This document shows positions 1 to 18,131 of a DNA stretch of 64,000 nt, piece by piece. Each line of letters opens with the position of its first letter. Within the stretch, counting starts at the first letter, position 1. The stretch is from the NCBI GenBank assembly GCA_965248265.1, contig CBDFJF010000002.1:4077829-4141828 (forward strand). Direction: 5' to 3'. Made by a program: the position numbers and the translations under genes. The notes under the pieces are model-generated. The model had not been told where the DNA came from, made no database searches, and worked only from the letters and a program-made list of their open reading frames with translations. Source of the stretch: Candidatus Latescibacterota bacterium (GTDB lineage: Bacteria > Latescibacterota > UBA2968 > UBA8231).

Positions 1-405
1 ACCGGCGGCTCTTTCCAGGTCGGTCCGGATGACGGCATCAACAACCGTATCGAAGTCACCATCGACGACATGAGGGCGAGCGGCGCGAGGCTCAACTTGA
101 ACACGACCTCGGTCTCCAGCCTGGACTCGTCCCGCAATTCGATCAGCGGTCTTGACCAGGCGATCGACAAGGTGTCACGTCAGCGAGGTGACCTTGGCGC
201 GTTTATGAACCGACTCGCTTTCACCATCTCCTTCACGGAGAACTCGATCGAGAACATCCAGAACTCGGAATCCTCGATCAGCGACGCCGACATCGCCACC
301 GAGATCTCGCAGTTCACACGGTCCCAGGTCCTGTCCCAAGCCGCCACGGCCATGCTCGCCCAGGCGAATGTGATCCCGCAAACGGCGCTTTCACTCCTGC
401 AGTAA
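1..405 (+). CDS. fliC: Flagellin, C-terminal part (5' end outside window)
   Basis: Frame open from base 1 (FQVG...). C-terminal flagellin signature RGDLGAFMNRL...ENIQNSESSISDADIATEISQFTRSQVLSQAATAMLAQAN..PQTALSLLQ. Confidence 0.95.
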   Translation, partial: TGGSFQVGPDDGINNRIEVTIDDMRASGARLNLNTTSVSSLDSSRNSISGLDQAIDKVSRQRGDLGAFMNRLAFTISFTENSIENIQNSESSISDADIATEISQFTRSQVLSQAATAMLAQANVIPQTALSLLQ

Positions 406-498
406 ACCACTACCCTATACCGCTCGGGGCTCCTCCGGTTACGGAGTCCGAGCGGCCCTATACCTACACTACACGACACTATACCTACACTACAACAG

Positions 499-531
499 AA
501 AGGCAGGGCCCGATCGGGCGCCTGCCTTTTT
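499..531 (+). terminator. Rho-independent terminator after flagellin, possibly bidirectional
   Basis: AAAGGCAGG-GCCCGATCGGGC-GCCTGCCTTTTT: GC-rich stem with a T run 3' and an A run 5'. A second hairpin lies at 420-455. Confidence 0.75.
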
Positions 532-653: not shown

Positions 654-1097
654 TTACGTCCACTTCTTACCGCTGGCGTCCCCCTTCGAGACCGGCCCGG
701 AGCCGCGCTGCTTTTCTGGCTTGGCCTCGCCGTCGACGAGGAAGCCGACAAAGCGTTTCTGACCCAGCGTCTTCAAGTACGACAGCAGAGAGACTTCCGC
801 CTCCTTGCGGTCCAGGGTGTAGGTCTTGCCCAGCGACTCGATCATCTGCGCCACCGTGGTTCGACCGTCGCACATCTGCCACACCTGAGTCCCTACCTCA
901 TCCAGGGTGATCTTGCGCTCCTGGGGAACGTAGAACACCTTCGACAACAACCGCACCTTCCAGGTGTCCTGGCGAGTAACGGTAATCTGCGTTTCTCCGC
1001 GATCGCTCTTAGCCCAACTGAGAAGCTCATTCCTCGCTGGTCGCGAGTTCAACATCGCTTCGCGAGTCAGCTTGGGCGTTTTCCTGGTGGCAAACAT
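654..1097 (-). CDS. Stand-alone PqqD-family / RiPP recognition element (RRE)-like protein
   Basis: ITLDEVGTQVWQMCDGRTTVAQMIESL...EAEVSLLSYLKTLGQKRFV matches the PqqD pattern L(D/N)xxGxxIWxxxDGxxTVxxI...FLxxL. Confidence 0.85.
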   Translation of the reverse strand: MFATRKTPKLTREAMLNSRPARNELLSWAKSDRGETQITVTRQDTWKVRLLSKVFYVPQERKITLDEVGTQVWQMCDGRTTVAQMIESLGKTYTLDRKEAEVSLLSYLKTLGQKRFVGFLVDGEAKPEKQRGSGPVSKGDASGKKWT

Positions 1098-2040
1098 ATC
1101 CCCGGGTCAGGACGTCGCACAGATCGTCCCGCTCGTCCTTTTTTTTGTAGAGGTGATCGACGACGCAGATCTTGTTCGTTGTCTCACAGTGCCAGACGCG
1201 GCCGTCGAGGTACTGACGTGGACGTGGATTGAGAAAAGGTAGGGGCCGCAGGAACTGTCGCCACCGACTGCGCGGCCGTCCTTCGACAGCAAGGCCCGCG
1301 TGATCCTGCACCCTGGTTTCGGTCGTTTCGTAGTTCAAGTCCCGCATTTGCTTCTTGAAAAAACTCCCATGCCAGGAGGTCAGGTCCGTGCCTTTGAGCA
1401 GCTGATTGGCCAGGCTCAGCCGCTGAACCCGGCAAACATGATGCGTCTTTTCGAAGGTCAACTGGATGTTACCGGATCTGAGCTGGTGCTCGGACAGAGA
1501 GAACTCCTCGGGCACGATGACTTCGAGCCCGTAGACGCACCAGAAAACGGATCCATCGACGGGGTGGTCCTGCATCGAGCGGAAGATCTCCTCGGCCACG
1601 CCCTCCATGTCGTCCTCTTCGGGTTTGCACAACACCCGTAGGAGAACAATTCGGCCGCATTGCTTGCACACCCGAGCCAGGTTGTAGGCGCGGTAGTCGG
1701 CTTCCCACGTGAAGGTCTCGTACTCCTCGCCCTCGAGCCAGCGCTTGTCTTTCAGGAACCGGGCCTGCCGTTGCACGGAGAATTCGAGCCCGGTCTTCTC
1801 AGCCTTCTTTTCCAGGTTGGAGAGGTACTTGGTCACGAGATCTTCGATCGGCAGACGCCGGCGCCGGGCGGGAGGTGATTCGCGCCATTCGACCTCCAGT
1901 CGCACTACAGAAGTGTCGTCCAGACGGACGTAGCCATTCTTATGGTTGCCGTCCACCTTGCCCAAACTCCACTCTGCCGGAACGCGCAGGCGGACCCCCT
2001 GCCAACCGAAATCTACCCAATCAGTGGATTTGACCTTCAT
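1027..2040 (-). CDS. Hypothetical soluble protein (~337 aa) with two internal repeats, possibly PsbP/Mog1-like
   Basis: ATG at 2040 lies 8 nt after the OPT stop. Similar half-starts FGWQGVRLRVPAEWSL and WCVYGLEVIVPEEFSL; similar half-ends VCKQCGRIVLL and HCETTNKICVV. The longer 2562 start overlaps the OPT gene. Confidence 0.75.
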   Translation of the reverse strand: MKVKSTDWVDFGWQGVRLRVPAEWSLGKVDGNHKNGYVRLDDTSVVRLEVEWRESPPARRRRLPIEDLVTKYLSNLEKKAEKTGLEFSVQRQARFLKDKRWLEGEEYETFTWEADYRAYNLARVCKQCGRIVLLRVLCKPEEDDMEGVAEEIFRSMQDHPVDGSVFWCVYGLEVIVPEEFSLSEHQLRSGNIQLTFEKTHHVCRVQRLSLANQLLKGTDLTSWHGSFFKKQMRDLNYETTETRVQDHAGLAVEGRPRSRWRQFLRPLPFLNPRPRQYLDGRVWHCETTNKICVVDHLYKKKDERDDLCDVLTRGYVCHQENAQADSRSDVELATSEE

Positions 2041-2048
2041 GGAGGTGT

Positions 2049-4457
2049 TCAGAATACCAGTACGGAGACGGATTTCTGTATGATGGCGATGGCGACCGCG
2101 GCCATCCCCATCAGGGCCATGCCGCAGGCAAAGCCGACGGCCAGGATCGGCGCGTATTGCCGCCATTCCTGCTTGCCGTATTTCTTCCAGAAATAGTATC
2201 GCGCCAGCAACGCCCCGATGAACTCCGTGATCATGAAATGCGGTATCGTCGTCAGGGCCCTCACCATTCCGAACACGAACAGCAAGGGGAAACCGAGCAT
2301 GGAGAGGACGATGTAGAGGAGCAATACAACCCCACCTCCGGCGGCCACGGCTTTGGGTTTCCAGGCGCGCATCAACCAGGACTCGTCCGTTGACCGCTGG
2401 ATCCAGGGACTGGTGAAGTTGGGATCGGTGTCCACGGCAAAGTAGTAATGCCAACCGGCCGGCAATGGCGTTGCGGCATCTGCCCGCAACTGTGGCCTGG
2501 CCGTGCGCACAATGCCGACATCGGCGGCTGGCGCCACGGCAACCACCGCTGGACCAGACCACTCCTCATCATCTACCGTGCGATTGCTGAGGGCTCCCGG
2601 GGGGAGCTCGGGCAGAACCCCAGGATCGCCCTCCCGGGTAAAAGCATAGAACGCCCGCTTTTCCGACCACGGGCCGGCGTCGCCGCGCTCGCCTTTGGAA
2701 TCGATCCACTCCTGACTGGCAGAGCGAACCTTCCAGTACCACCAGCTGTCACCCACCAGGTTGGCGGGGGTGTAGACGACTCCGGCGTCGGTCGTCTCCA
2801 TCGTGCTCCTGAGCGTCCCTGTAAACCAGATGCAGGTCTGCATCGCCCGCAGCCTCCACATCTGCTGGGCGTACGGGTACGAAGCGGAGGGAATCGGCGC
2901 CAGCTTCCACAGGTAGGAGGAGTACAGGAACGTGGAAAGGAGCACGATCGGCACCATCATGACCTCAGCCTTGATGATGCTGGTAAAGCTGGTACCGGTC
3001 AGCTCGATCTCGCGAAATTTCTGCGTTTGAGCGCCGTAGTTGTCGATTGGAAATGGCACGAACCAGATATCGACGCCCGGGTACCCCGACAGTAAAATGG
3101 TCGCTTCCCGCACGTAGGGGATCGCAACGGTCTGTCCGACCATACCCACCAGGCGGGCGGAAACGAAGGACTGTAACGGGGTAAAAATGAACGCGAAGAA
3201 CAGGAAGAAATACATAAAGCGACTGATTCCCGGCATCAGCAGCCATGCCATCAGTACCAACCCGCCCATGGCCACCATGTAGAGGCCGATGGCGATCCAT
3301 ATGGGAAAATCACCGCGCCCCGGCGGCGGCTCCATGCGTGAGCGGCCCTCCCCACCTGCTACCCGTTTTTCCGCTCTCGCTGTCCGAATGCCCTTGGTCA
3401 GCTGATAGATGCCGATGAGGGCGATGGCGAAGGTGGAGCCGATCCCGAAGCTCATCCAGAAATCGACACTGTTCATGAAAAAGGTGTCGATGGCTCCCAT
3501 ACCTGGCTGCCAGGTCGACAGGATGCCCATCTCGTGCAGGATGGGGTTGGCGATAGTGGCTGCCAGAATGCCGAAGAAGCCCCCCATAACGCCCCAGAAA
3601 GGCATCACCATGCCCGAAAAAATAGGACCCAGGTGGACGGTGAAACCCAGCGGTGTGGCCGGAATGAAGTTGCCGCTGATCTGCGTGAAATCGACAAACG
3701 GGATCGGCAACAGCTGCACCGGTTCGGTCAGAATGGCGCCGGTGATGGCCGGAATTGCAACGTAGAGGGCGCCGAAAACGAGTCCGATCATGGCGCCGGC
3801 CGAAAACACCCTCCAGCGCCAAGACTCCACTCCCTGCGTCGACTCGGCAAGCGCCGTGGCGCCCTGTGCCGCTACGGGGGCGAATGGAAACGGCAGACGC
3901 TCGTAGTCCGAATTGATCCGGAACAGGGTGTAGGCGGCCGAAAACCAGGACATCCGCGAGATCACCATGCTGGCGACGAGTACGAGGATCGGCACGAACC
4001 AGTCGGCGTGCAGGAAGGTCCGGTTGAGCAGGGCCGGAGAGCCCAGCGGCGGCGCCCACCAATCGGGAAAAAGATTGGCGATTCCGAACTGCGTGGCGGC
4101 TGGAGACTGGCGCAGGTACTGATTCCACAGCAGCCCCTCGAAGGCACCGGTTTCGGCGGCGATCAGGCCGGAAGCGACGTAGAACAACACGTAGACTTCC
4201 TGGCGCGACAGGGTCGTGAACGAGCGCTTGGTGATCTCGGCGAAGAGGATGATGGTCACCCACTCGGCCGCGGCTCCGAGAGAGCCGCCGACCATCAGGC
4301 TCAGGTACATGTTGCCGGGAATCATGATGAAGGCGACGAACAACACTCCGACGATCGAGCGGCTGGTGAAGCCGTCCTCGAAGCGGTCGGGAACCTCCAT
4401 CAAGCTGCGGTATTCCTCAATCTCCTGATTGGGATTGGATCCTTTACGCCAGAACAA
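2049..4457 (-). CDS. OPT (oligopeptide transporter)-like polytopic membrane protein with an inserted soluble domain
   Basis: Many hydrophobic helices; N-terminal GFTSRSIVGVLF...YLSLMVG and ERLPFPFAPVAAQGA resemble OPT/YSL-like transporters; hydrophilic insert at ~2390-2810. Confidence 0.7.
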   Translation of the reverse strand: MFWRKGSNPNQEIEEYRSLMEVPDRFEDGFTSRSIVGVLFVAFIMIPGNMYLSLMVGGSLGAAAEWVTIILFAEITKRSFTTLSRQEVYVLFYVASGLIAAETGAFEGLLWNQYLRQSPAATQFGIANLFPDWWAPPLGSPALLNRTFLHADWFVPILVLVASMVISRMSWFSAAYTLFRINSDYERLPFPFAPVAAQGATALAESTQGVESWRWRVFSAGAMIGLVFGALYVAIPAITGAILTEPVQLLPIPFVDFTQISGNFIPATPLGFTVHLGPIFSGMVMPFWGVMGGFFGILAATIANPILHEMGILSTWQPGMGAIDTFFMNSVDFWMSFGIGSTFAIALIGIYQLTKGIRTARAEKRVAGGEGRSRMEPPPGRGDFPIWIAIGLYMVAMGGLVLMAWLLMPGISRFMYFFLFFAFIFTPLQSFVSARLVGMVGQTVAIPYVREATILLSGYPGVDIWFVPFPIDNYGAQTQKFREIELTGTSFTSIIKAEVMMVPIVLLSTFLYSSYLWKLAPIPSASYPYAQQMWRLRAMQTCIWFTGTLRSTMETTDAGVVYTPANLVGDSWWYWKVRSASQEWIDSKGERGDAGPWSEKRAFYAFTREGDPGVLPELPPGALSNRTVDDEEWSGPAVVAVAPAADVGIVRTARPQLRADAATPLPAGWHYYFAVDTDPNFTSPWIQRSTDESWLMRAWKPKAVAAGGGVVLLLYIVLSMLGFPLLFVFGMVRALTTIPHFMITEFIGALLARYYFWKKYGKQEWRQYAPILAVGFACGMALMGMAAVAIAIIQKSVSVLVF

Positions 4458-4514
4458 CGGTCTCGTTCCCTCCCTCCGCGATCAGATCACGGAAAACAAT
4501 CCTCGGCCGGGTGC

Positions 4515-7500
4515 TCATGCGGAAACTTCCGTCCGCTGGCCGGTCAGGATCTCTTCGCCCTGCTGCCGGTAGGACTCCTTGGCGTCGCTCTCGACTGTGC
4601 GCCAGATCAGAAACTGCTTCCGAATGACGTTCATGAAGCGCTGATTGACTCGTCTCCAGGAAGCATCTTCTCCACTGAGCCTGCGGATGTCCAGTGTTAT
4701 CTGATAGATCTGTTGCTGTTCGGGTTCTGGTACGGCACTGATGACGACGTGCTGGCTTACTCCCAGATCGAAGGGCGCCAACCAGATGTTCATGTCGATG
4801 TTGTACCCGGAGGCGACTCCCGCATCGAAACGAGAAAGGCGAGCGCCGTCTGTGTAAAAGGTTCCGATCGACTCCTCACTGTAGGAGTCGAAGTAGCCGA
4901 TGAGGAACACGCTGAGCCCGAGGACATCGTGGCCGCTTACCGTAAACGGAAACTCGAAGTGCCACTCATCTCCCTCGGGCGAAGGCAGGCGCCACTTCCG
5001 CGTGACGTCCGGCACGGCCATCTGCGACGCCTTGCGAGCCGGATAGAGGGTCGACAGGATGACGACGGCCATTACCAGCAGACAGGAGAGCACCGCTGAC
5101 AATGAAGAGTAGTTGAGCGTGAAACCCGTTATCACCTGCAGCTTCATCATTGCGGTGGCCACAATCTGTCCACTGAGATAGCCGGCGACGACCCCAAGAA
5201 CCGCGTAGACACAGGATTCGGCCACGAACAACCACGCAATGTGACCGGGGGCCAGGCCGACTGAAGAATAAATTCCGATCTCGCGCAGACGCTCGTAGAC
5301 GCTGCCCATCATCGTGTTGAGGACGATCAGTGCGGCGATGAGGATGGGAACGAAGAGATTCGCTATTCCGGAAAGCGAAGTCATGCCGAGAGAGCTGTAG
5401 ATGGAGACCTTGATGTAGTCGTCGTCTGGATCCTGGGCGCCGGCGAACAAAGTTACCGCGAGGCGGGAAAGAAAAGTCTCAATTTCAGCGCGCACGTCAA
5501 TACCGGGTTCGAAGCGCACCGCCACAGACTGCAGCGGATTGCCGCTGCCGACGTTGCGCAGCGTCTGGTAGGGTATGATCAGGGTGTTCGCCGGTTCCAG
5601 ATGGACGAAGGGCTTGATGACCACCTTCGAGTCCTCCAGTCCCTGCTTCTCTCGCTCTTCCTCCTTGGCCATGTCCTGTACCGCCTGACCACCCGTCACC
5701 GCGAAGTCGGCGGGAGTTATGACTTCGTCATCGAGATCCTTGAGCGCCTTCATGCGTTTCGAGTCGATGATGCCGACGACGGTGAACATCTCTCCGAACA
5801 CCCGGATCTGGACGCTGCCAACCTCATCGGTATCGAAATTGAGGTTGTCGACTCCGATCATCTCGCTGGGCAGTATGCAGACTTTCTCCTCTCCCGGGAG
5901 AAACCACCGTCCAGCGATCAGACCCGTGTCGAGTCCGGTGACCAGCTTTTCCTGCGGTGTCAATCCGAGCACGCCCAGTGCATCGTGGGCGTTGCCATCG
6001 TGCATCAACTTGACGTGGACCTTCTTCTTGTTGTCGTACCAGCTGCGCGGGGCGACGGTGCCGATGCGGCCGAAATTACTCTCGGCGTACTCCAGCACGG
6101 ATGTCTCGAGAGGAATCCATGCCTTGCTGCGGATGAGGATGCCCTCGTAGAGCCCCTCGTTGTCTCGCTGGATTTGATTGAAGCGCAGAGAGGTCTGAAT
6201 CGAAGTAAAAGACAGTACCGTAAACGTCAGCAGCAGCAAGGTGAAGAAGGTCAACACGGTCCGCAGTTTGCGCCGCTTCATATTCGAGATGCCGAGCATG
6301 AAGGCAGTCAGGGATGCGCTCGAACGGCTGACGTCGGTATCGTGCACGACGGCCACTTCCGTGCGCAGCTTCTTCATCTGCTCGTTGAAGCGACCGCCGA
6401 TGATCCACATCACCAGCGAGGCCAGCGTCAAAATCACGAAACCGAGTAGAATGACGAACGGGTTTGACAGCTCAAAAGCCGGATGCACGGCGGACAATAC
6501 CAGCCAGATCGCGGCGAAGACGAAGACGAACCCGAAGATCTGGTTCTTGATCGTGGCCGCGGTGATCAACAGGCGCTCAGTGAAGTAGGCGCAGGGGAGC
6601 ACGAGTGCCATGAAGAAGATGATGCCGCGGATGACGTCGTTCTGCGTCGATTTGACGTCCGGATAGGCCCTCGACTCGAGACCGATCCCCGCGCGGGTGT
6701 GCTTGGTGAAGGCACTCCAGTCCCTTTCCGCTAGCGCCGCCTCGGCCAGGTCGATCTCTTTCTTGGCCCGGCCGTGCAAGTCGTTCAGACGCTCGTTTTG
6801 TATGGCGAAGCTCTTGAGCTCCTGCATGCGGGCCTCGTCGAGCATCCACATGTCCTTCGCCGCTCTGAACGAGGTGCGGCTGAAGGAGGATCCAGGTCCG
6901 ATGTCGAACCCGTCACCCAGGGCGCGCTCCTTGTTTTCGGCGGACTGGGAGTTGAGCAACAGATAGCGAAAACCCAGGATATCAGCTCCGAAGCCCATTT
7001 TTACTACTGTGCCGGGACGGGCGAAGAGGACACCGACGGGCTCTTCGAGCGCCGAAGGCCCCTCGCCGATGGAATATCCGTACTCCACCGGGGCCGTGTT
7101 GGTGTCATCGAAGACCTGGACCTGAGCCAGCTTGGTCAGGTAGCGGGGATCGACGATATCGAAGTAATTGTAGGCCTGGCAAGGGAAGAGGATGACCATC
7201 CAATCCTTGTCCCGCCAGTCCATCTTGATGAGCATTCCGTAAGATCCGCCCTCGGTGTTTCCACGGTCCGGAGCGTAGGTCACTTCCCCGGTGGCGGGAT
7301 CCAGGTAATATCCCTCGACTTGCAGCTGGTTGACGCGAATGCGGTTGACGTGAAACGCGCCGCGATCGTCGACCACCTCGAAGTATTCCCCGCGGACTCC
7401 CTTGTAGGATTTCTTCTTACCGTTGCGCAGCACGGCGACGGCGCCCTTGCGGGGAAGATCGGGGACGATGCTGCGGCGAGGGAAAATCATCGTGCGCCCA

Positions 7501-9299
7501 TTCAGGGTGCGCAACGTATCCTTCAAGCGCATCTTGAAATCGGGGAACAGCTCCGCGTCCTGGAAGGCCAGATGGAACATGCCGGCGAGTACCCGTATCT
7601 GTTTTTGCAGATTCAGGTAGTTCACCTTGTCAGCCTTGTCCAGGGGGGTATCGACTAGGAAACGAGCGTCGTTCACGGTCACGAACGCCAGCGCTGGGGT
7701 GCCGGTGTCGAGGACGAGTTCGCTGTTGACGGATATCTCCCCCGGCACGAACGATTCCCAGTTCTTGCCTCCCTCGGGACTGATGCCATTGACGAGAACG
7801 TCTCGGAACAAGTATCCCAACTCCCGGCTTATCTCGCGGGAGTAGTTCATGAAGTTCTTGCCGAACGGTGCGAAGTAGCGCTTGTAATAGAAGCTGGTGT
7901 TGCTGTTCCAGACCCCTAGTTCGTCGGTTTGCGTCGACAGATCGAGGCTGATGAACAGTTTGACACTCAACGTATCAACCTTCGGCGTGGCCCACTCGTG
8001 CAGGAACTGCAACCGCAGGTCCTCGTCCCGCATCAGATTCTGCACCAGGACCTGACGGTTCTCGAAGGACCTGTCCCCTATCACGAGGGAAGCGCTGGCG
8101 CCTTTTTCCTCCCCCATGGCACCGAGGTCGCCACGTTGCAGTATGCTCTGAACCAGCGCCGTATCGACGTCGGCCACGTGTTGGATGAGAGATTCCTTGC
8201 CCAGGAAATTCTCTTCCCCGAGGTGATAGCGCACCCCCTCGCGCTCGATGATGCCCTGTTCGAGGGCCACCTCGACGGCCCTCCGGAACACCATGCGGTC
8301 GACGAAGGGATCCTCTCTGCGCAGATACCGCTGGATGAAATCGTCGATGCCGCGCAGACCCAGGTGATGGGCTGATGTGGCTAGCAACACGATCGTACGG
8401 GGGGCGGGATGCTCTCTGAAATAAGCAGCCAACTCCAGCAAGGCCGCGATTCCGGCCGCTTGCTCAGCGCCGGGTGCCAGACCTGGAACGACGGACATGG
8501 CGTCGTAGTAAGCCTCGAGAACGATGACGTCGTCCTTGAGAAGTGGATCGTAACCGGGGACCTGACCCACTATGTTCCAGGCCTCACGGCGCTCCCAGTC
8601 CATGCGGTATTCGAAGTGCGCCTGGAGTTGGCGATCCTCCTGGGAAGCGCCTGTCTGCCCGATCTTCGATCGCAACCACGCCCCATCCTCCTTCGACACC
8701 CAGAAACGGGGTACATCGAGAGGCATGGTAAGGAATTTTCTCTCACCTTCCAGGTACACGGTAGAGTCGGGTTCGATGAAAACGACACCCGCTGCACCGA
8801 GATAGGCAGGGTTCAGCCAGTTATCACCCGTGTTGAAATCCATCAACACGTAGGCCCCCTCCAGATCCTGACCATTCATCGCTGAAAACTCACCGGATCC
8901 GGCGTCTATCAGGCGTGCATCAACCCCACCGTCGGGAAGCGTCGATGTCCGCACCAGATTGGGCCATAGTCCATGCAAAGCGATCGCGCGGTCATCACCG
9001 CCAATGTGCAGAAACCCACCTTTTTCAACTGGAATGGAGATGTCATAGGTGTGTGCGGCGACCTTGTGGAGGCCAAGGTCTTCAAAGGCGGCCTGGATGA
9101 AGGAGGCAGCCTGATCCGCTCCGGGGTATCCGACTACGCGAGATCCCAGACCGGCAAGATACCCGATCGACTGCTCGAGCTGCTCTTTCTTGGCCAGCCC
9201 TCGCAACGCATCGTAGTCCAACTCGGTCGCCGCCGCTGGCAACTGACTGGCAATGGCAACGGCAACAGCCACCAGACCTTTTCGCGCGAAATCAGTCAA
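4515..9299 (-). CDS. Large fusion: signal peptide + PA/M28-peptidase-like ectodomain + MacB/FtsX-like ABC permease
   Basis: Likely TTG start at 9299 after GGGGAG. SRVVGYPGADQAA, NIVGQVPG, VIVLEAYYD, APGAEQAAGIAALLELA indicate the M28 fold. SNMKRRKLRTVLT and VLNTMMGSVYERLREIGIYSSVGLAPGHI..LFVAES are FtsX/MacB signatures. Confidence 0.85.
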   Translation of the reverse strand: MTDFARKGLVAVAVAIASQLPAAATELDYDALRGLAKKEQLEQSIGYLAGLGSRVVGYPGADQAASFIQAAFEDLGLHKVAAHTYDISIPVEKGGFLHIGGDDRAIALHGLWPNLVRTSTLPDGGVDARLIDAGSGEFSAMNGQDLEGAYVLMDFNTGDNWLNPAYLGAAGVVFIEPDSTVYLEGERKFLTMPLDVPRFWVSKEDGAWLRSKIGQTGASQEDRQLQAHFEYRMDWERREAWNIVGQVPGYDPLLKDDVIVLEAYYDAMSVVPGLAPGAEQAAGIAALLELAAYFREHPAPRTIVLLATSAHHLGLRGIDDFIQRYLRREDPFVDRMVFRRAVEVALEQGIIEREGVRYHLGEENFLGKESLIQHVADVDTALVQSILQRGDLGAMGEEKGASASLVIGDRSFENRQVLVQNLMRDEDLRLQFLHEWATPKVDTLSVKLFISLDLSTQTDELGVWNSNTSFYYKRYFAPFGKNFMNYSREISRELGYLFRDVLVNGISPEGGKNWESFVPGEISVNSELVLDTGTPALAFVTVNDARFLVDTPLDKADKVNYLNLQKQIRVLAGMFHLAFQDAELFPDFKMRLKDTLRTLNGRTMIFPRRSIVPDLPRKGAVAVLRNGKKKSYKGVRGEYFEVVDDRGAFHVNRIRVNQLQVEGYYLDPATGEVTYAPDRGNTEGGSYGMLIKMDWRDKDWMVILFPCQAYNYFDIVDPRYLTKLAQVQVFDDTNTAPVEYGYSIGEGPSALEEPVGVLFARPGTVVKMGFGADILGFRYLLLNSQSAENKERALGDGFDIGPGSSFSRTSFRAAKDMWMLDEARMQELKSFAIQNERLNDLHGRAKKEIDLAEAALAERDWSAFTKHTRAGIGLESRAYPDVKSTQNDVIRGIIFFMALVLPCAYFTERLLITAATIKNQIFGFVFVFAAIWLVLSAVHPAFELSNPFVILLGFVILTLASLVMWIIGGRFNEQMKKLRTEVAVVHDTDVSRSSASLTAFMLGISNMKRRKLRTVLTFFTLLLLTFTVLSFTSIQTSLRFNQIQRDNEGLYEGILIRSKAWIPLETSVLEYAESNFGRIGTVAPRSWYDNKKKVHVKLMHDGNAHDALGVLGLTPQEKLVTGLDTGLIAGRWFLPGEEKVCILPSEMIGVDNLNFDTDEVGSVQIRVFGEMFTVVGIIDSKRMKALKDLDDEVITPADFAVTGGQAVQDMAKEEEREKQGLEDSKVVIKPFVHLEPANTLIIPYQTLRNVGSGNPLQSVAVRFEPGIDVRAEIETFLSRLAVTLFAGAQDPDDDYIKVSIYSSLGMTSLSGIANLFVPILIAALIVLNTMMGSVYERLREIGIYSSVGLAPGHIAWLFVAESCVYAVLGVVAGYLSGQIVATAMMKLQVITGFTLNYSSLSAVLSCLLVMAVVILSTLYPARKASQMAVPDVTRKWRLPSPEGDEWHFEFPFTVSGHDVLGLSVFLIGYFDSYSEESIGTFYTDGARLSRFDAGVASGYNIDMNIWLAPFDLGVSQHVVISAVPEPEQQQIYQITLDIRRLSGEDASWRRVNQRFMNVIRKQFLIWRTVESDAKESYRQQGEEILTGQRTEVSA

Positions 9300-9433
9300 T
9301 CTCCCCCTTCTCTTGATACGGTAATTTTGAATGGTCCGAGATTCTGATTCAGTCGAATACATCGGGCCAAATTCGACAATAATACCGCCTTACGCAACAA
9401 TCGAGGACCACGGAGGTCTGCCTGTTGGCCCGG

Positions 9434-9955
9434 TCAGCCCGAGCGTGAATCCATGCGTGTCAGTCCCTGGAGAATCCAATACACGACCAGACCGATCAAA
9501 GCGCCACTGAGCAATCCCCCCACGAGGAACAGTGGCAGCAGCGAAAACAGACCTGGCTGATCGATGTAGACGTAAGCCAACAACAGCTGAACGCCCTGAT
9601 GCGTCACAGCTCCCATGATACTGATGCCGATCGGACTGAACAGCCACCCCGGGGCGTGTCGGGCGAGGCCCATAATGCTCAGACTGGCCATGCCTGCGCC
9701 AGCACTGATCACGAAGGCAGGGCCGGCCAAGCTTCCAGTGAGCAGACCTCCGACCACGATCTTGATGCTGGCAACCACGAAAGCCTGGCGAACACCAAAC
9801 AGCATCAGGGCCAACAACACCGCCCCGTTACCTAGACCCAACTTCATCCACGGCAGAGGTCGAGGTACGGCCGCCTCGATCACGAACAGGACAAGGGCTG
9901 TTCCCGCCACCAACGCCAGTCTGGCCAGACCAGATGTGCTGCTGGGACCGGTCAC
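9434..9955 (-). CDS. Gx transporter family / 'heptaprenyl diphosphate synthase component I'-like membrane protein
   Basis: IEAAVPRPLPWMKLGLGN...GSLAGPAFVISAGAG...FSPIGISIMGAVTHQGVQL are characteristic motifs. Confidence 0.85.
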   Translation of the reverse strand: MTGPSSTSGLARLALVAGTALVLFVIEAAVPRPLPWMKLGLGNGAVLLALMLFGVRQAFVVASIKIVVGGLLTGSLAGPAFVISAGAGMASLSIMGLARHAPGWLFSPIGISIMGAVTHQGVQLLLAYVYIDQPGLFSLLPLFLVGGLLSGALIGLVVYWILQGLTRMDSRSG

Positions 9956-10344
9956 TGAGTGACCGCATCCAGGTCAGGATTGGAACCGTCCACCCCCACA
10001 AGGCGTAGGATCACGCGATTGGGAAGACAGACGGCAAGCTCGCCCGCGTCGTGCATCCATCCTGTGTTCACGCAGATCTGGTGGCGGCAAGGCGACGACA
10101 CGATCCTGGCCGCCGACGGTCCGATCTCGACTACCGTTACACCCAGTGGGCCGGCGTACTCAATTTTCTGTGGGCTAGTGAGTGTGTAGGGTCCGTCTGA
10201 TCCCGCGGTGCTTTCGATGAGTGCTGCCCCCGCGGAGACGGAACCACCATCCGGAATGGCCAGTATCAACGTCGTCAAACCGACAGCGCCGATGACGATC
10301 CCGTCGCCTATTTTCAGTATGCCCATGGCCTGTCGGTGCCGCAT
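9952..10344 (-). CDS. NusG domain II-containing (Lin0431/DUF1312-like) membrane-anchored protein
   Basis: GPLGVTVVEI...RIVSSPCRHQICVNTGW...LAVCLPNRVIL Cys pattern; N-terminal TM; AAGGAGG RBS before the ATG at 10344; 4-nt overlap with the next gene. Confidence 0.85.
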   Translation of the reverse strand: MRHRQAMGILKIGDGIVIGAVGLTTLILAIPDGGSVSAGAALIESTAGSDGPYTLTSPQKIEYAGPLGVTVVEIGPSAARIVSSPCRHQICVNTGWMHDAGELAVCLPNRVILRLVGVDGSNPDLDAVTQ

Positions 10345-10464
10345 CTGTCCCTCCTTGACATGCGCTTGAGGGATGGCTAAGATTCGAACCTGCTGCAAAC
10401 GCTACAATTTAGCAGTAGAAGCGGATCGGCACTATCACCGACAGGTCCCCACGCGGGAACGCAC

Positions 10465-10973: not shown

Positions 10974-13235
10974 TTGACCGATCCGGCAGCCCTGCCTTTC
11001 CCGCCCCCCTCTGGTGAGGAGCCACCCGCGGATCCAGATCAAACCCCTGTCCGGGGGGTCTCCGACACGTCCGGCAGTCTCGACGAACTGCTGGAGCAAG
11101 CCTCGAACCATCTACAACTGCAGATGCTCCTCATCGAGGTCGCCTCCAGCAACGAGCAGGCTGACTTCGATCTCATCGCCCGAGCCTATTACTTCGCCCA
11201 CGCGCATCATGATGGGCAAACGCGCAAGTCTGGCCAACCCTTCATGCAGCACTGCGTCGAGGTGGCGCGGATTCTTGCCCAACTGAGGCTGGATTCCACT
11301 ACCGTAGCGGCCGGCCTGCTCCACGACGTCCTCGAGGACACGCCAGTGAGCCTCGAGGAAGTCGCCGCCGAATTCGGTCCAAAGATCGCTGCTCTCACCG
11401 ATGGCGTGACCAAAATAGAGCGATTCCGCTACGAGAGCCGTGAAGCTCGTCAGGCTGAGACCTACCGCAAAATGCTGCTGTCAATGGTCGAGGATATTCG
11501 CGTGATCCTGGTGAAGTTCGCCGACCGCCTGCACAACATGCGAACCCTCGAACACATGGACTCAGAGCAGCAAAAACGCACGGCTCTCGAGACCGCCGAA
11601 GTGTACGCCCCCCTCGCTCACCGGTTAGGCCTGGCGCGCATCCGTTGGGAGCTGGAGGACCGCAGCCTGAAGTACATGGATCCCGATATGTATCGAGAGA
11701 TTCGCGACAAGGTCTCGATGAAGCGAGAACAGAGAGAGGCCTATATCCATGACTTCAAAGCGCCGATCGAGGCGGAGCTGGCACGCAGTTCGATTGAAGC
11801 CGAGATCATGGGGCGCCCGAAGAATTTTTTCAGCATTTACAACAAGATGAAGTCGAGGGGAAAACCGTTCGATGAGATCTATGACCTGTTGGCGGTGCGA
11901 GTCATCGTCGATTCGGCCAGAGAGTGCTATCACACTCTGGGTTTGATCCACACGATCTATCACCCGATCCCCGACCGCTTCAAAGACTATCTGGCAACAC
12001 CGAAGACGAACATGTATCAGTCGCTGCACACTGCCGTCATCGGACCGCGGGGGTTACCGGTGGAAGTCCAGATTCGCACCCGCGAAATGCACCACACAGC
12101 CGAATTCGGCATTGCCGCCCACTGGCGGTACAAGAGCGGCCTTTCGAAGAAGGGTCTCGACTTCGAAAACCAGATCAACTGGCTGCGACAGGTCCTCGAC
12201 TGGCAGCGGGACGCCACCGACCCCGTCGAGTTCATGGAGAATCTGAAGATCGAGTTATTTCAGGACGAGATCTTCATCTTTACGCCCAAAGGGGATCTGC
12301 ACCAGCTGCCCGGTGGTGCCACGCCGATCGATTTTGCCTTCGCCATCCATACCGATATCGGCCTCCACTGCTTGACGGCGAAGGTCAACGGACAAGTCGT
12401 ACCGTTGAGTACGGAACTCAGCAGCGGAGACAATGTGCAGATCATCACCTCGCCCCACCAAAAGCCCAGTCAATCCTGGCTCGAAATGGTGAAGACGGGC
12501 AAGGCCCGGCAGGCAATTCATCGTTGGTTGCGAGAGGAGCAATACGCCCATAGCGTTCGCCTGGGACAGGAAATCCTGGAGCGTGAACTCAGAAAATACA
12601 GGCACCGGATAAAGAGCGATGCCCTGGAGGGGTTGGCGGAGGAGTTCGGCCTTACCGACAGCGAGCATCTTTACGCCCGTATCGGCAGTGGTGATCTGTC
12701 CGTCGGCCGCGTGGTCAGTCAGCTGTTTCCGGAGAAGCCGAAACGACGGCTGCGGTTTCCGCTGTTGCGCGATCGTCGTGGGATCCGTATTCAGGGCATT
12801 GACCACCTGATGATACACTTCGGCAAGTGTTGCACGCCCATCCCAGGTGATCCGGTCATCGGACTGATTACCCGAGGTCGGGGCATTTCAGTACACCGGA
12901 CCGATTGCCCCAACATCGGCGACATCGCCGAGGATCCGGATCGCATCGCATCGGTGGAATGGGATATCGAAGAAGAGCAGGCGTTCACCGTTCAGCTACA
13001 GGTCAAGGGAACGGATCGCAAATACCTGCTTTCGGACGTGGCCCGGGCCATTTCAGACGCGGGAGCTAATATCCAGAGCTCTGCTGCCCGCACGACGCAG
13101 AACACGGCAGAGGAAACCTTCTGGGTCGACATCAAAGACACCCGTCAGCTACAGACCTTGATGCGCGGCCTCTCGAATGTCGAAGGTGTAACCGATGTCC
13201 GGCGCGTGGACGACCCACAACCCGTCTCCAGCTGA
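10974..13235 (+). CDS. relA: Bifunctional (p)ppGpp synthetase/hydrolase (long RSH)
   Basis: HDGQTRKSG, LLHDVLEDT (intact HD), KFADRLHNMRTL, RFKDY, YQSLHT, EVQIRT; TGS (FTPKG...TPIDFAFAIHT); CCTPIPGD; ACT domain. Confidence 0.95.
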   Translation: MTDPAALPFPPPSGEEPPADPDQTPVRGVSDTSGSLDELLEQASNHLQLQMLLIEVASSNEQADFDLIARAYYFAHAHHDGQTRKSGQPFMQHCVEVARILAQLRLDSTTVAAGLLHDVLEDTPVSLEEVAAEFGPKIAALTDGVTKIERFRYESREARQAETYRKMLLSMVEDIRVILVKFADRLHNMRTLEHMDSEQQKRTALETAEVYAPLAHRLGLARIRWELEDRSLKYMDPDMYREIRDKVSMKREQREAYIHDFKAPIEAELARSSIEAEIMGRPKNFFSIYNKMKSRGKPFDEIYDLLAVRVIVDSARECYHTLGLIHTIYHPIPDRFKDYLATPKTNMYQSLHTAVIGPRGLPVEVQIRTREMHHTAEFGIAAHWRYKSGLSKKGLDFENQINWLRQVLDWQRDATDPVEFMENLKIELFQDEIFIFTPKGDLHQLPGGATPIDFAFAIHTDIGLHCLTAKVNGQVVPLSTELSSGDNVQIITSPHQKPSQSWLEMVKTGKARQAIHRWLREEQYAHSVRLGQEILERELRKYRHRIKSDALEGLAEEFGLTDSEHLYARIGSGDLSVGRVVSQLFPEKPKRRLRFPLLRDRRGIRIQGIDHLMIHFGKCCTPIPGDPVIGLITRGRGISVHRTDCPNIGDIAEDPDRIASVEWDIEEEQAFTVQLQVKGTDRKYLLSDVARAISDAGANIQSSAARTTQNTAEETFWVDIKDTRQLQTLMRGLSNVEGVTDVRRVDDPQPVSS

Positions 13236-14720: not shown

Positions 14721-15263
14721 TCAACGCGAGCTACTGCGAGTTAACTCCCCCATCCTCTTGAGCACCTCAACTTCGGCGACCCCAAGATCAACCATGCGGG
14801 CCACCTCATCCGTCGAAATCCCCTTGCTCAACAGCTGCCGCGCGTGCTCGTAGATCTCGTGCTGGCGAGCGCCGCTGGCTGGGTCCCTGCCGGGTTTGGC
14901 TGCAATCCCCCCACCCCCTCCGCGGGACGTGGCCGAACCGTCAGAGGTTCGAGAGCCTTCATCGGACATGGCACTGCCCGTGATCCCGGATGAGGCCGCA
15001 TCATCCATGAGCGGGGAGAGGAACGATCGCGACCCACGACTTCGCGGGTCTGCTGCGGTCAGGGTGCGGCAGGCTCCCTGTAAACGCTCCTGGATCTGTG
15101 TCAGCTGTTTCAGATTCGCGTCCAGCGTATCGAATCGGCGGTCCATTCTGTGAGTCTGGACCCGCAACCATGACCGAAACCACATCAGGATGGCCAGGGC
15201 GACCGCCAGGAAAAGGATGTCGACGATGACGAGCTGTACGTGTTGTGATGATAGGTCAATCAT
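14721..15263 (-). CDS. Membrane-anchored protein with C-terminal HTH-like domain (DUF2802-like, flagellar-cluster associated)
   Basis: N-terminal TM, coiled coil, C-terminal IYEHARQLLSKGISTDEVARMVDLGVAEVEVL. Confidence 0.6.
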   Translation of the reverse strand: MIDLSSQHVQLVIVDILFLAVALAILMWFRSWLRVQTHRMDRRFDTLDANLKQLTQIQERLQGACRTLTAADPRSRGSRSFLSPLMDDAASSGITGSAMSDEGSRTSDGSATSRGGGGGIAAKPGRDPASGARQHEIYEHARQLLSKGISTDEVARMVDLGVAEVEVLKRMGELTRSSSR

Positions 15264-15469
15264 GAGAATAAGAGATGTGTCCTTGGAATGGTATGAGGTC
15301 TAGTGCCCTGTTACGGAAGTAGGCTTGTGAAATGAGGGCGCCGAGTCGCCCGGCCTGCAAGGCGCGCGAGTGAGGTATATCAGTGGGATATGCCGATTGA
15401 GCGAAACGCAGCAGGTCGGGATGAATCGGCGGTCGAATACAAGAGTACTTTCGTGACAGGGCACTTAGG

Positions 15470-17047
15470 TTAACCATCGACATGCAGGGGCTCATCGCGG
15501 TTGCTCTCTTGTTCGACATCGATTAGGTCGCCTTCCGAGGCGGACACGTTTGCTGACTCGGGTGCACTCTCGGACGTGGGCGGAGGAACAGGTAGACGAA
15601 TGACAAACGTAGCCCCCTGTTCAGACTCGCTACTGACACTCAAGCTCCCCTTGTGCATCTCCACTATACTGTAGCTGACCGCCAGTCCGAGTCCTGTGCC
15701 TCCTTGATCAGCCCGGGTCGTAAAAAAGGGTTCGAAGAGCCGGTCCTCGTGTTCGGGCGGAATGCCTTGCCCCGAATCGGCGAAACGCAATTCGACCTGC
15801 TCACCGTCCACCCGTGCCGTGATCGTCAGATTTCCACCTTTGGGCATCGCGTTTTGGGCGTTGAGCATCAGATTGATGAATACCTGCTCCAGCTCACCGA
15901 CGTTACCCAGCAGCGCCGGCATATCTTCTGGAATCTGAATTTCGACCTCGATGGACTGGGCGTCGAGCTGGTGCTTGACGAGAGCAATGGCCTGTTGAAT
16001 GGCTTGGTTCAGATCGAATCGGGACCACTCGGCGTCGGCCTTGTTGTGGCCCGCGAATCCGAGCAACGCCCGGATGATCTTGGAAATCCGTCGCACGTTG
16101 CTCTCGATCAATCTCAACCCCTTGATGACCGGTTCGGCGTCCGCGTTTTGGGCGATCATCAGTTGTACCCGGCTGAGAATGATCTGCAGCGGATTGTTGA
16201 CTTCGTGCGCAACTCCACCTGCCAACTCACCGATCGCCGCCTGTTTGGCAGAAATCAGCACTTGCTGCTGAGATTCGACGAGTTGGTCGTGCGTTGATTC
16301 AAGATCGGAGTAGTGGCGCGAGTTGGATACGGCGGCGGCTGTCTGGTTGGCCAAAACATCGAGCAGTTGCACCTGGCCCAGCGTGAAATCGTCCTTTTCA
16401 CGAGCACAGTGCAAAATGAAGATTCCGACCTCCTTGCCACCGACGATGAGCGGGATCATGACGAAACAATGGGGATCTGACGATTCTCGTGAGAGCGCAT
16501 CGATGTCATCGATAACCACCGGCCGGCGCTCCCGCATCACCCAATCGATGATGCCGTCTTCCCAATGGGACTGTACGCGCGCCTGTAGCGCGGGAACATC
16601 CATGCCACGGCTTGCCACGACCTCGAGTTTATTGCCCTCCTCCTCCAGAACGAAGACTCCGCAGGTCTCGTATGGCACGAAACGATTGGAGAGGTCCATC
16701 AGGGCGTCGAGTATATCCTCGATCCTGAAACTCGTGCTGATGGTCTCCGACAACTGGTGCAAATTGAGCAACTCGTTCATCGACTCACGCAGCTGCTCGT
16801 ACTGCTCGTGCCCCCGAGTCAGGCGGTCCTGAAGTTGACGATTCTCCTGCTCCAGGGCCTTCACGCGGATGGAATGCTCTTTCGCCGCTTCTTCCACCCC
16901 TTCGAGATGAACGCCCAGCTCCCAACCCACATCCTCGGGGCCGCTTTCTTTGACCAGGTCTGCGAGCTCACGCAGCCGGTCCAGGGACAGCGATCCTGCA
17001 TCTTGAGGCTCTGGTGACGTGCCTTGATCGCCAGCCTCTTTCGTCAC
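15470..17047 (-). CDS. Cytoplasmic GAF-domain sensor histidine kinase
   Basis: Coiled coil then GAF; H-box GELAGGVAHEVNNPL, N-box EQVFINLMLNA, G1 DSGQGI, F-box FEPFFTT, G2 GTGLGL; no TM seen. Confidence 0.92.
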   Translation of the reverse strand: MTKEAGDQGTSPEPQDAGSLSLDRLRELADLVKESGPEDVGWELGVHLEGVEEAAKEHSIRVKALEQENRQLQDRLTRGHEQYEQLRESMNELLNLHQLSETISTSFRIEDILDALMDLSNRFVPYETCGVFVLEEEGNKLEVVASRGMDVPALQARVQSHWEDGIIDWVMRERRPVVIDDIDALSRESSDPHCFVMIPLIVGGKEVGIFILHCAREKDDFTLGQVQLLDVLANQTAAAVSNSRHYSDLESTHDQLVESQQQVLISAKQAAIGELAGGVAHEVNNPLQIILSRVQLMIAQNADAEPVIKGLRLIESNVRRISKIIRALLGFAGHNKADAEWSRFDLNQAIQQAIALVKHQLDAQSIEVEIQIPEDMPALLGNVGELEQVFINLMLNAQNAMPKGGNLTITARVDGEQVELRFADSGQGIPPEHEDRLFEPFFTTRADQGGTGLGLAVSYSIVEMHKGSLSVSSESEQGATFVIRLPVPPPTSESAPESANVSASEGDLIDVEQESNRDEPLHVDG

Positions 17048-17066
17048 TCTGCCTTCCCTTCCCCTG

Positions 17067-18131
17067 TCACGGATGGGGCTCCGCGGGTGCCGTTAATTCG
17101 CCGTCGCTATCCGTCGCTTCGATCTCCACTTCGTCGACGCGATCAGGACCATCGGCTGAAAGCGCCTCCAGTGGCTGACCCGCCGGTGTCTGAGAGTCGG
17201 TCTTCCCGTCGGCATCGGCCTCCGTTTCTTCCTCACCGCCTCGAGCGATAGAAGAGAAGGCCTCAGCACTTTCCATGGCCGCACGCAACTCGTCTCCGTA
17301 CCCGAATATTCGCTTGATCGCTATTTTCGGATCCTCGTGAATACCGAAGGTGCGCAGAGCAGCCGGATCCAGACTCGGAAAGCGCTCACCCCCGGCGTCG
17401 CCGATCCGCTCTCTGCGACACAGAAAATCAGCGAGGTGAATCAGTGACGGCAGCTCGTTGCGCCCCGGAGCCGCGCGACCAGGGGCGTGGTGAAATTTGA
17501 TGGCATCTTCAAGCTGGTCGGGTAGATTCCAGCGCTGGGCCAACCACCCCCCGACGTCGGCGTGAGTGACTCCGAGGACTTCCTCTTCCGCCTTGCCAAT
17601 GTAGAGATCCTTTTCTTCGACCAGTTCGATGATTTGCTTGAAATCGACCGGGAAATACTGGCTCAAGATCAACTTGCCGATGTCGTGCAGTATTCCCGCC
17701 GCGAAGGCCTCGCCTCGCCCGGAAACGCGGTACCGCAGTTTTTCGGCGAGCAGTTTGGCGGCCACACCGCAGGCGATGGAGTGCTCCCAGAACTTCTGTC
17801 GATCGAAGTGACTGCTGTCTCCGCCGCTTGAAAAACGCTCGAGCACGGATACGCTGAGCCCGAGATTCTTGACTGTTTCGAAGCCGAGAACGACGACGGC
17901 GAGGTCGACGGTGGCGATCTCGCGCGGAAAACCGTAGAAGGCGGAGTTCGCCAGCTTGAGGATCTTGGCGGTGAGTGCCTGATCGGCGGAGATCAGCTGG
18001 GCGACATTGCGAGCGGAGGTTTTCGGGTTGTCAATCAGGCCGATCAACTGGGTGACGACGGCAGGCAGCGTCGGCAGTCCGATGATACTCTGAGTGACCT
18101 TCTTGAGGCGTTGTTGCTTGTCCTCATCCAC
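17067..18131 (-). CDS. HDOD domain protein
   Basis: LPTLPAVV, DQALTAKILKLANSAFYG, FWEHSIACG, AGILHDIGKL, THADVGGWLAQRWNLP...HH. Confidence 0.93.
   Translation of the reverse strand: MDEDKQQRLKKVTQSIIGLPTLPAVVTQLIGLIDNPKTSARNVAQLISADQALTAKILKLANSAFYGFPREIATVDLAVVVLGFETVKNLGLSVSVLERFSSGGDSSHFDRQKFWEHSIACGVAAKLLAEKLRYRVSGRGEAFAAGILHDIGKLILSQYFPVDFKQIIELVEEKDLYIGKAEEEVLGVTHADVGGWLAQRWNLPDQLEDAIKFHHAPGRAAPGRNELPSLIHLADFLCRRERIGDAGGERFPSLDPAALRTFGIHEDPKIAIKRIFGYGDELRAAMESAEAFSSIARGGEEETEADADGKTDSQTPAGQPLEALSADGPDRVDEVEIEATDSDGELTAPAEPHP

Follow-up and report, generated by a model that had tools for sequence, protein, structure and literature searches.

Type VII ATP-binding cassette (ABC) transporters, such as MacAB-TolC, LolCDE, FtsEX-EnvC, YbbAP and BceAB, contain FtsX-type permeases, which dimerise, associate with two ATPase subunits and pass ATP-driven movement to periplasmic domains. 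Carriers of the oligopeptide transporter (OPT) family are, as far as we know, ion-driven and work alone. We analysed a stretch of 64,000 nt from a Candidatus Latescibacterota bacterium (assembly GCA_965248265.1, contig CBDFJF010000002.1, positions 4,077,829 to 4,141,828; referred to as the window), whose genome comprises 7.3 Mb in two contigs. One end of the window carries four genes of a system for which the type VII ABC transporter is the closest known kind. The whole system consists of six genes, here split over two loci. We refer to the four open reading frames (ORFs) in the window as g1 to g4, to the gene for a short FtsX permease as g5 and to that for an ABC ATPase as g6. The window encodes the following proteins:

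4515-9362, minus strand: g1, a giant permease of 1615 residues (ORF, Pfam, NCBIfam and hydropathy)
2049-4457, minus strand: g2, a polytopic membrane protein of 802 residues with a predicted OPT/Yellow-Stripe fold (AlphaFold2 model, Foldseek and VIA-align)
1027-2040, minus strand: g3, a cytoplasmic tandem PsbP/Mog1-like protein of 337 residues (AlphaFold2 model and Foldseek)
654-1097, minus strand: g4, a PqqD-like protein of 147 residues resembling recognition elements (RREs) for peptides that are made by ribosomes and modified after translation (RiPPs) (Pfam PqqD)

The genes are co-directional, with spacings of 57 nt between g1 and g2 and 8 nt between g2 and g3, and g3 and g4 overlap by 71 nt. 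This overlap is real, because the N terminus of g4 is conserved in alignments of its orthologues and the same overlap recurs at about 67 nt in related loci. The original prediction for this DNA had described this arrangement correctly from the ORF coordinates, and had read the genes as a pseudo-M28/FtsX fusion, an OPT-like protein, a two-repeat protein and a stand-alone PqqD/RRE protein; all four assignments are borne out by the analyses below, that of g2 by fold and not by sequence. It had also known of no characterised system with this composition, and we found no published description of one in a literature search that had subscription journals mostly outside its range.

The extent of the system emerges from its counterparts in a second phylum, the Armatimonadota. 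At one Armatimonadota locus (L116), g1 to g4 are all present and arranged as in the window, at 28-47% identity. We also took 20 Armatimonadota loci on long contigs, for only one of which the flanking genes were known beforehand. In 14 of these, g1-g2-g3-g4 are followed by a short FtsX gene encoding 203-232 residues, which g4 abuts or overlaps. An ABC ATPase gene adjoins the short FtsX gene in these 14 loci and in L116, that is, in all 15 complete Armatimonadota clusters. The gene set is thus not lineage-specific, its order being kept in a second phylum.

The motor is encoded elsewhere in the genome studied here. The prediction that no ATPase is visible stands for the window, where tblastn searches with the cognate ATPase and short FtsX proteins gave no match at E <= 1e-5, but it does not stand for the genome, which encodes g5 and g6 side by side at an unlinked locus (G000:C1:3118876-3120383):

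G000:C1:3118876-3119580: g5, a short FtsX protein of 235 residues (37.5-37.9% identity over the full length)
G000:C1:3119586-3120383: g6, an ABC ATPase of 266 residues (66.7-70.7% identity to the ATPases of the Armatimonadota clusters)

The next-best ATPase paralogue in the genome reaches 43%. Because g6 is so much closer to the cluster-encoded ATPases than that paralogue, we conclude from the sequence comparison that the ATPase is displaced and not absent. The g5 protein matches the FtsX domain PF02687 (E 1.4e-19) and has about 55 residues between its first two transmembrane (TM) segments, as judged by hydropathy. The best NCBIfam matches of g5 and g6 are of the Lol/MacB/FtsE type (for the ATPase LolD, MacB, DarD, YbbA and FtsE), with every NCBIfam equivalog model below its cut-off for both proteins (for example, LolD 228.8 versus 307.75 for g6). 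As the Armatimonadota block continues with g5 and g6, and orthologues of both occur in this genome, the unit is one of six genes, not four.

With the type VII ABC transporters the set shares its FtsX-fold permeases (g1 and g5) and its LolD/MacB/FtsE-type ATPase (g6), and the large extracytoplasmic domain of g1 suggests mechanotransmission. Unlike them, it has a 1615-residue permease (g1) to which an M28-like head and three additional TM segments are joined, and only about 55 residues separate the first two TM segments of g5. The set further adds an OPT-fold partner as well as tandem PsbP-like and RRE-like proteins, its motor genes are unlinked in this genome, and no named equivalog cut-off is reached.

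The distribution of the genes across genomes was analysed in both phyla. Among 61 related Latescibacterota genomes, g3 is matched in 58, nearly always once each. The three genomes without g3 also lack g4 but contain g2; they are 81-91% complete, and an assembly gap explains the missing g3-g4 equally well, the two genes being adjacent. We then tabulated presence by hand in 201 Armatimonadota genomes, many of them incomplete metagenome-assembled genomes. Profiles matched g3 in 168 and g4 in 176 of these (E <= 1e-5), and g2 in 171 (E <= 1e-20). Both g2 and g3 are found in 167 genomes, g2 only in 4, g3 only in 1 and neither in 29, which leaves 5 discordant genomes; for g3 and g4 the corresponding numbers are 167, 1 (g3 only), 9 (g4 only, mostly weak matches) and 24, with 10 discordant. 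Homologues of the genes therefore co-occur in other genomes, as the original prediction of a single system had called for. Its view that the four genes belong together is upheld, in the sense of one conserved set, by the gene order in the second phylum and by the agreement of presence and absence across the 201 genomes, although the unit has to be enlarged to six genes. Finally, we fetched 80 loci through an alignment of g4 and sorted them by their neighbours. The full g1-g2-g3-g4 block is present in 33, one of them from Armatimonadota (L116); one locus is cut after g2 and three have g3 and g4 only.

Copy numbers differ between the two parts of the set. The genome encodes four copies of g1 and three of g2; g3 and g4 occur once, and g5 and g6 are represented by a single clear orthologue each. 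Three of its g1 copies are followed by a g2-family gene and the fourth by a gene for a UPF0182 membrane protein, and no ATPase gene was found near any of the four g1 loci. Five other Latescibacterota genomes have two to four copies of g1 and one g3 each. The paralogous g1-g2 pairs of Latescibacterota have divergent outer domains. The closest paralogue of the g1 in the window (65% identity) lies at locus L016 (G000:C2:1310000-1329000), where the gene for the 948-residue UPF0182 protein (4232-7078) follows it in place of a g2-family gene. At another paralogous g1-g2 locus (L015, G000:C2:2058000-2077000), a membrane protein with DUF6785 and DUF6784 domains is encoded upstream (3305-5470) and a 924-residue fusion of M28-like and aminoglycoside 3-N-acetyltransferase domains downstream (15238-18012), with an enolase-like (MR_MLE_C) gene and a cupin gene between g1-g2 and the fusion.

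Hydropathy analysis gives g1 a signal-anchor TM segment at residues ~30-48 and an outer domain of ~860 residues with the M28-like core, followed by three TM segments at ~910-988. The MacB/FtsX unit then comprises a TM segment at ~1037-1055, a periplasmic domain and TM segments at ~1330-1439, and the protein ends in a cytoplasmic tail of ~165 residues. Three Pfam families are matched within it:

5019-5354, minus strand: FtsX permease C-terminal domain, residues 1337-1448 (PF02687, E 2.3e-14, 53.9 bits)
8331-8576, minus strand: M28-like core with a putatively remodelled metal site, residues 263-344 (PF04389, E 1.8e-07, 31.5 bits)
5700-6122, minus strand: weak match to the MacB periplasmic core domain, residues 1081-1221 (PF12704, E 2e-4)

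The NCBIfam models for MacB, ADOP, LolC and FtsX all score far below their cut-offs on g1 (MacB, for example, 32.3 versus 966). The Peptidase_M28 match covers only positions 1-78 of the 193 in the model and falls short of the full catalytic domain. In alignments of g1 to YwaD (6hc6) and to the leucyl aminopeptidase 1amp, the metal and catalytic positions, which we take to be the first zinc-binding His, the bridging Asp and the Glu-Glu pair of M28 enzymes, read Tyr, Glu and His-His. The same replacements run through the family: among 18 members, His is changed to Tyr in 17 and Asp to Glu in 17, and the Glu-Glu pair becomes His-(Phe/His/Tyr), with His at the first position in all 18. The canonical M28 zinc ligands and catalytic Glu are thus not kept in g1 or across these aligned members. 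Because the replacements are conserved, the site appears to be remodelled rather than decayed, and the label pseudo-M28 seems fair; some binding of a metal or ligand may remain at the old site, since its Glu and His are conserved family-wide. The replacement of canonical metal and catalytic positions is shared with inactive M28 ectodomains such as those of nicastrin, nicalin and the transferrin receptor, and nicalin is weakly matched by g1 (E 0.037). The head of g1 presumably resembles such receptor-type dead peptidases, although it belongs to a bacterial protein and is joined to an ABC permease.

The fold of g2 was assigned from an AlphaFold2 model (predicted local distance difference test score, pLDDT, 80.1). 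Foldseek matched this model to barley Yellow Stripe 1 (HvYS1, 7wst) with an E value of 1e-8, and VIA-align superimposed it on 7wsr_A with a Z score of 19.8 (554 residues aligned at a root-mean-square deviation of 4.7), the next match having a Z score of 6.0. On this model, g2 has the OPT/Yellow-Stripe fold, by fold and not by sequence: the likeness to the OPT/Yellow Stripe-like (YSL) structures of HvYS1 (PDB 7WSR/7WST) extends over nearly the whole membrane domain, 554 of 600 residues, at 13% identity. The protein differs from the known carriers in its constant pairing with a giant FtsX-type protein, in having no sequence match to Pfam OPT and in carrying an insert:

2388-2810, minus strand: immunoglobulin (Ig)-like beta-sandwich insert, residues ~550-690 of g2 (secondary structure of the model; many Ig-like matches with Z scores of ~5)

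The insert is missing in the Armatimonadota orthologues of g2, which have ~680 residues. A BLASTP comparison of g2 with the DUF6785/DUF6784 protein of the paralogous locus gave nothing significant, and hhalign of the g2 alignment with this protein and with the UPF0182 neighbour, each represented by a single sequence, gave no match. At one related locus (L037, 487-5504), g2 is duplicated in tandem between g1 and g3, and the copies have 73% and 72% identity to g2.

In g3, hydropathy analysis detected neither a TM segment nor a signal peptide, and no Pfam or NCBIfam family is matched. Its AlphaFold2 model (pLDDT 86.5) contains a PsbP/Mog1-like alpha/beta sandwich twice. Foldseek matched the model to the two-domain type VI immunity protein TplEi/Tli4 and to PsbP (E 5e-5 to 1e-3, probability 1.00), with E 4.9e-5 for TplEi (5h7y) and target-normalised template modelling scores of 0.5-0.6 for single PsbP domains. 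Unlike these proteins, g3 has conserved Cys and His residues and no toxin partner, and the likeness is one of fold only (8-15% identity). The family is large, with 1609 cluster representatives at E <= 1e-3, and is without annotation. Across 45 diverse relatives, C125, C128, C285, C317 and H318 are each conserved in 34-43, a pattern suggesting that they probably form a metal site.

The smallest of the four proteins, g4, matches Pfam PqqD (PF05402) with an E value of 1e-11 and 45.4 bits, above the cut-off of 23.4:

747-914, minus strand: PqqD domain, residues 62-117 of g4 (PF05402)

This domain likens g4 to PqqD proteins and other RREs. It differs from them in its conserved N-terminal motif and extension and its basic tail, both evident from alignments, in being encoded between PsbP-like and FtsX genes, and in lacking both a precursor and a conserved modifying enzyme. 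As the original prediction had noted, the RRE-like protein stands outside a RiPP context: none of the ORFs near the cluster that were scanned with Pfam encodes a RiPP-modifying enzyme, and no obvious precursor peptide appears in the ORF lists of the region. All NCBIfam PqqD-type equivalog models score below their cut-offs on g4. A B12-binding radical SAM gene (Radical_SAM_N2 and Radical_SAM domains) adjoins 3 of the 15 Armatimonadota six-gene clusters, on either side:

L160, 857-2437: B12-binding radical SAM gene
L165, 12179-14026: B12-binding radical SAM gene
L166, 11955-13850: B12-binding radical SAM gene

A search of the Latescibacterota genome studied here for an orthologue of this gene gave no match at E <= 1e-10. 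A predicted-complex run with g3 and g4 scored 0.02 against a mark of 0.32, a result that counts neither for nor against binding.

On balance, we consider it probable that the six proteins form an envelope machine, four parts of which are encoded in the window, and that its most likely role is the uptake of oligomeric peptide-like nutrients. The core of the predicted complex would be a type VII (MacB/Lol/FtsEX-like) ABC motor. Because g1 and g5 carry one FtsX unit each, the simplest assembly would be a g1/g5 heterodimer, in which g1 pairs with the four-TM g5, together with two copies of g6, the LolD/MacB-type ATPase that would power the pair. ATP-driven movement would pass through g1 to its M28-like outer domain, which would capture a periplasmic ligand, and g2, encoded next to g1, would be the membrane conduit for this ligand. 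At the cytoplasmic face, g3 with its probable Cys/His metal site and the RRE-like g4 would be accessory subunits. Since the genome has four copies of g1 and one each of g3, g4, g5 and g6, the last four probably serve several g1/g2 modules. The direction of transport would be inward and the substrate peptide-like, because the g1-g2 pair has given rise to diverse paralogues and the OPT structure that was matched, HvYS1, is one that we take to be an importer. Peptide handling and a cytoplasmic-adaptor role for the RRE had been part of the original prediction, and we likewise infer both. More tentatively, the system could represent a hitherto unrecognised hybrid class of transporter, in which a type VII ABC motor (g1, g5 and g6) is coupled to an OPT-fold conduit (g2), with cytoplasmic g3 and g4 common to paralogous modules, a core found in at least two phyla and a RiPP recognition fold repurposed as a structural subunit.

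Several observations weigh against this explanation. We know of no OPT carriers that work with ABC motors. For g2 itself, no Pfam family is matched at E <= 0.1 (OPT, PF03169, included) and no NCBIfam family, and a profile of 21 relatives gave 0 matches at E <= 10 against all solved chains. The MacB periplasmic core domain match in g1 stays below its cut-off (22.1 bits versus 27). In 43 of the 80 loci, which come from other Latescibacterota families, lexA lies next to dprA and is transcribed divergently from g3-g4, and g1 and g2 are not nearby, so that g3-g4 are detached from g1-g2 there. In five genomes of this lexA type, the g1-g2 pairs are found elsewhere, hundreds of kb away (in G057, ~640 kb from g3). 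Among the 20 long-contig Armatimonadota loci, g3 stands alone in 6, with varied neighbours that include FtsW/RodA, TPR proteins, a Na/H exchanger, FecCD and an M20 peptidase, and when we searched 31 narrow regions surrounding the top-scoring matches to g3 by tblastn, g2 or g4 was found in 7 and neither in 24. The co-occurrence of g2, g3 and g4 is strong, but it amounts to no statistical proof, because related genomes are not independent samples and many assemblies are incomplete, and it may partly reflect clade structure. The near-universal single-copy presence of the set in Armatimonadota also fits a housekeeping function as well as it fits uptake.

Such a function is the most serious rival to uptake, precisely because of this near-universal single-copy distribution. 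The same six-part machine could have a housekeeping job in the envelope, where it would extract, export or remodel a lipoprotein, a cell-wall peptide or a surface polymer by mechanotransmission, as in LolCDE, MacAB and FtsEX, with g2 as a conduit or scaffold. The single copy of g3 in most of the 168 Armatimonadota genomes and 58 Latescibacterota relatives that have it would be expected of such a job. The families closest to g5 and g6 (Lol, MacB, DarD, YbbA and FtsE) act outward or in the periplasm, and there are hints of a link to the cell wall in a SPOR-domain gene that follows one cluster and the FtsW/RodA gene that flanks one lone g3. However, these hints are single cases, the paralogous g1-g2 pairs with divergent outer domains follow a pattern more typical of substrate diversification, and the sole solved OPT-family structure that was matched is, presumably, that of an importer. 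We regard a housekeeping role as unlikely, even if it deserves to be taken seriously.

Somewhat less likely again is that the locus combines two unrelated modules that are mere neighbours, a membrane pair (g1-g2) and a cytoplasmic pair (g3-g4), the latter perhaps related to DNA damage through lexA and dprA. The 43 lexA-type loci and the 6 lone copies of g3 described above would follow from such a separation, as would the fact that detached g3 and g4 stay together, at a median distance of 85 nt. In those other Latescibacterota families, g3-g4 and lexA may share a LexA-controlled intergenic region; g3-g4 divergent from lexA are also seen at L029-L032, L035 and L036. In the genome studied here, however, lexA lies on another contig, and the order g1-g2-g3-g4-g5-g6 is kept in the second phylum across 28-47% identity, where g4 directly adjoins or overlaps the gene for the short FtsX protein and only 5 of 201 genomes have one of g2 and g3 without the other. 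It was the finding of the same gene order in Armatimonadota that reduced the two-module explanation to a rival. A RiPP or other peptide natural-product pathway, in which g4 would hand a precursor to its modifying enzyme and export of the product would fall to the membrane proteins, is highly improbable: g4 does match PqqD, weakly also the lasso, GeoRSP and SCM PqqD-type models, and the radical SAM gene does lie beside three clusters, but this gene is missing from the other 12 of 15 and has no match at E <= 1e-10 in this genome, the equivalog scores are all below their cut-offs, neither a modifying enzyme nor an obvious precursor was seen among the ORFs searched, and the near-universal distribution of the core is unlike that of secondary-metabolite clusters.

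We also considered the transcription unit and the surroundings of the four genes. A scan for promoter and terminator consensus sequences gave nothing usable at the ends of the operon, and one terminator-like element was recognised by eye and folded:

493-526, minus strand: terminator-like hairpin with a U-tract, between g4 and a convergent flagellin gene

The hairpin, ~130 nt past the g4 stop codon, has a fold energy of -27.9 kcal/mol (z -5.2), and 0 of 200 shuffled sequences were as stable. Given this strong hairpin with its U-tract and the convergent flagellin gene beyond it, the transcription unit probably ends after g4. Contigs from three seawater metatranscriptome libraries that are 90-99% like the window and come from a relative cover much of g1, g2 and g4, leaving 1194-1787 (in the middle of g3) and 9213-9500 uncovered. 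Two of them bridge the g1/g2 junction (X20 record 4, 4417-4926; X22 record 19, 4318-4693), with the proviso that RNA libraries can contain DNA and that a contig spanning two genes is no proof of a single transcript.

Directly past the g4 stop codon and before the hairpin, an 18-nt unit is repeated 3.9 times with 94% matches (579-648). The flagellin gene that converges on g4 is represented in the window by its C-terminal part (1-405, plus strand), and a flagellin gene has the same position in 22 of the 33 related four-gene loci. On the other side, 71 nt upstream of g1, genes for a membrane protein of the Hpre_diP_synt_I family and a NusG_II-domain protein (9434-10398, minus strand) are co-directional with g1. 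This pair is found upstream of g1 in two genomes of the same family as well (L033 and L034) and was not seen in the Armatimonadota clusters; it may share a transcript with g1. Divergent from these upstream genes is a full-length RelA/SpoT homologue with HD_4, RelA_SpoT, TGS and ACT domains (10974-13235, plus strand).

Should the six proteins act jointly, a MacB/Lol/FtsEX-type ABC motor would be wired to an OPT-fold transporter, a combination for which we found no published description. This would provide a first functional context for a large OPT-fold family that the sequence models used here miss, for the unannotated g3 family with its 1609 representatives and for an RRE/PqqD protein outside peptide natural products. 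It would also carry a lesson for annotation, in that the ATPase of an FtsX permease that appears to be an orphan can be encoded far away in the genome. Nearly all sampled Armatimonadota and Latescibacterota carry the set, and for that reason it likely matters for nutrition or envelope construction in these phyla, which are poorly studied and mostly uncultured.

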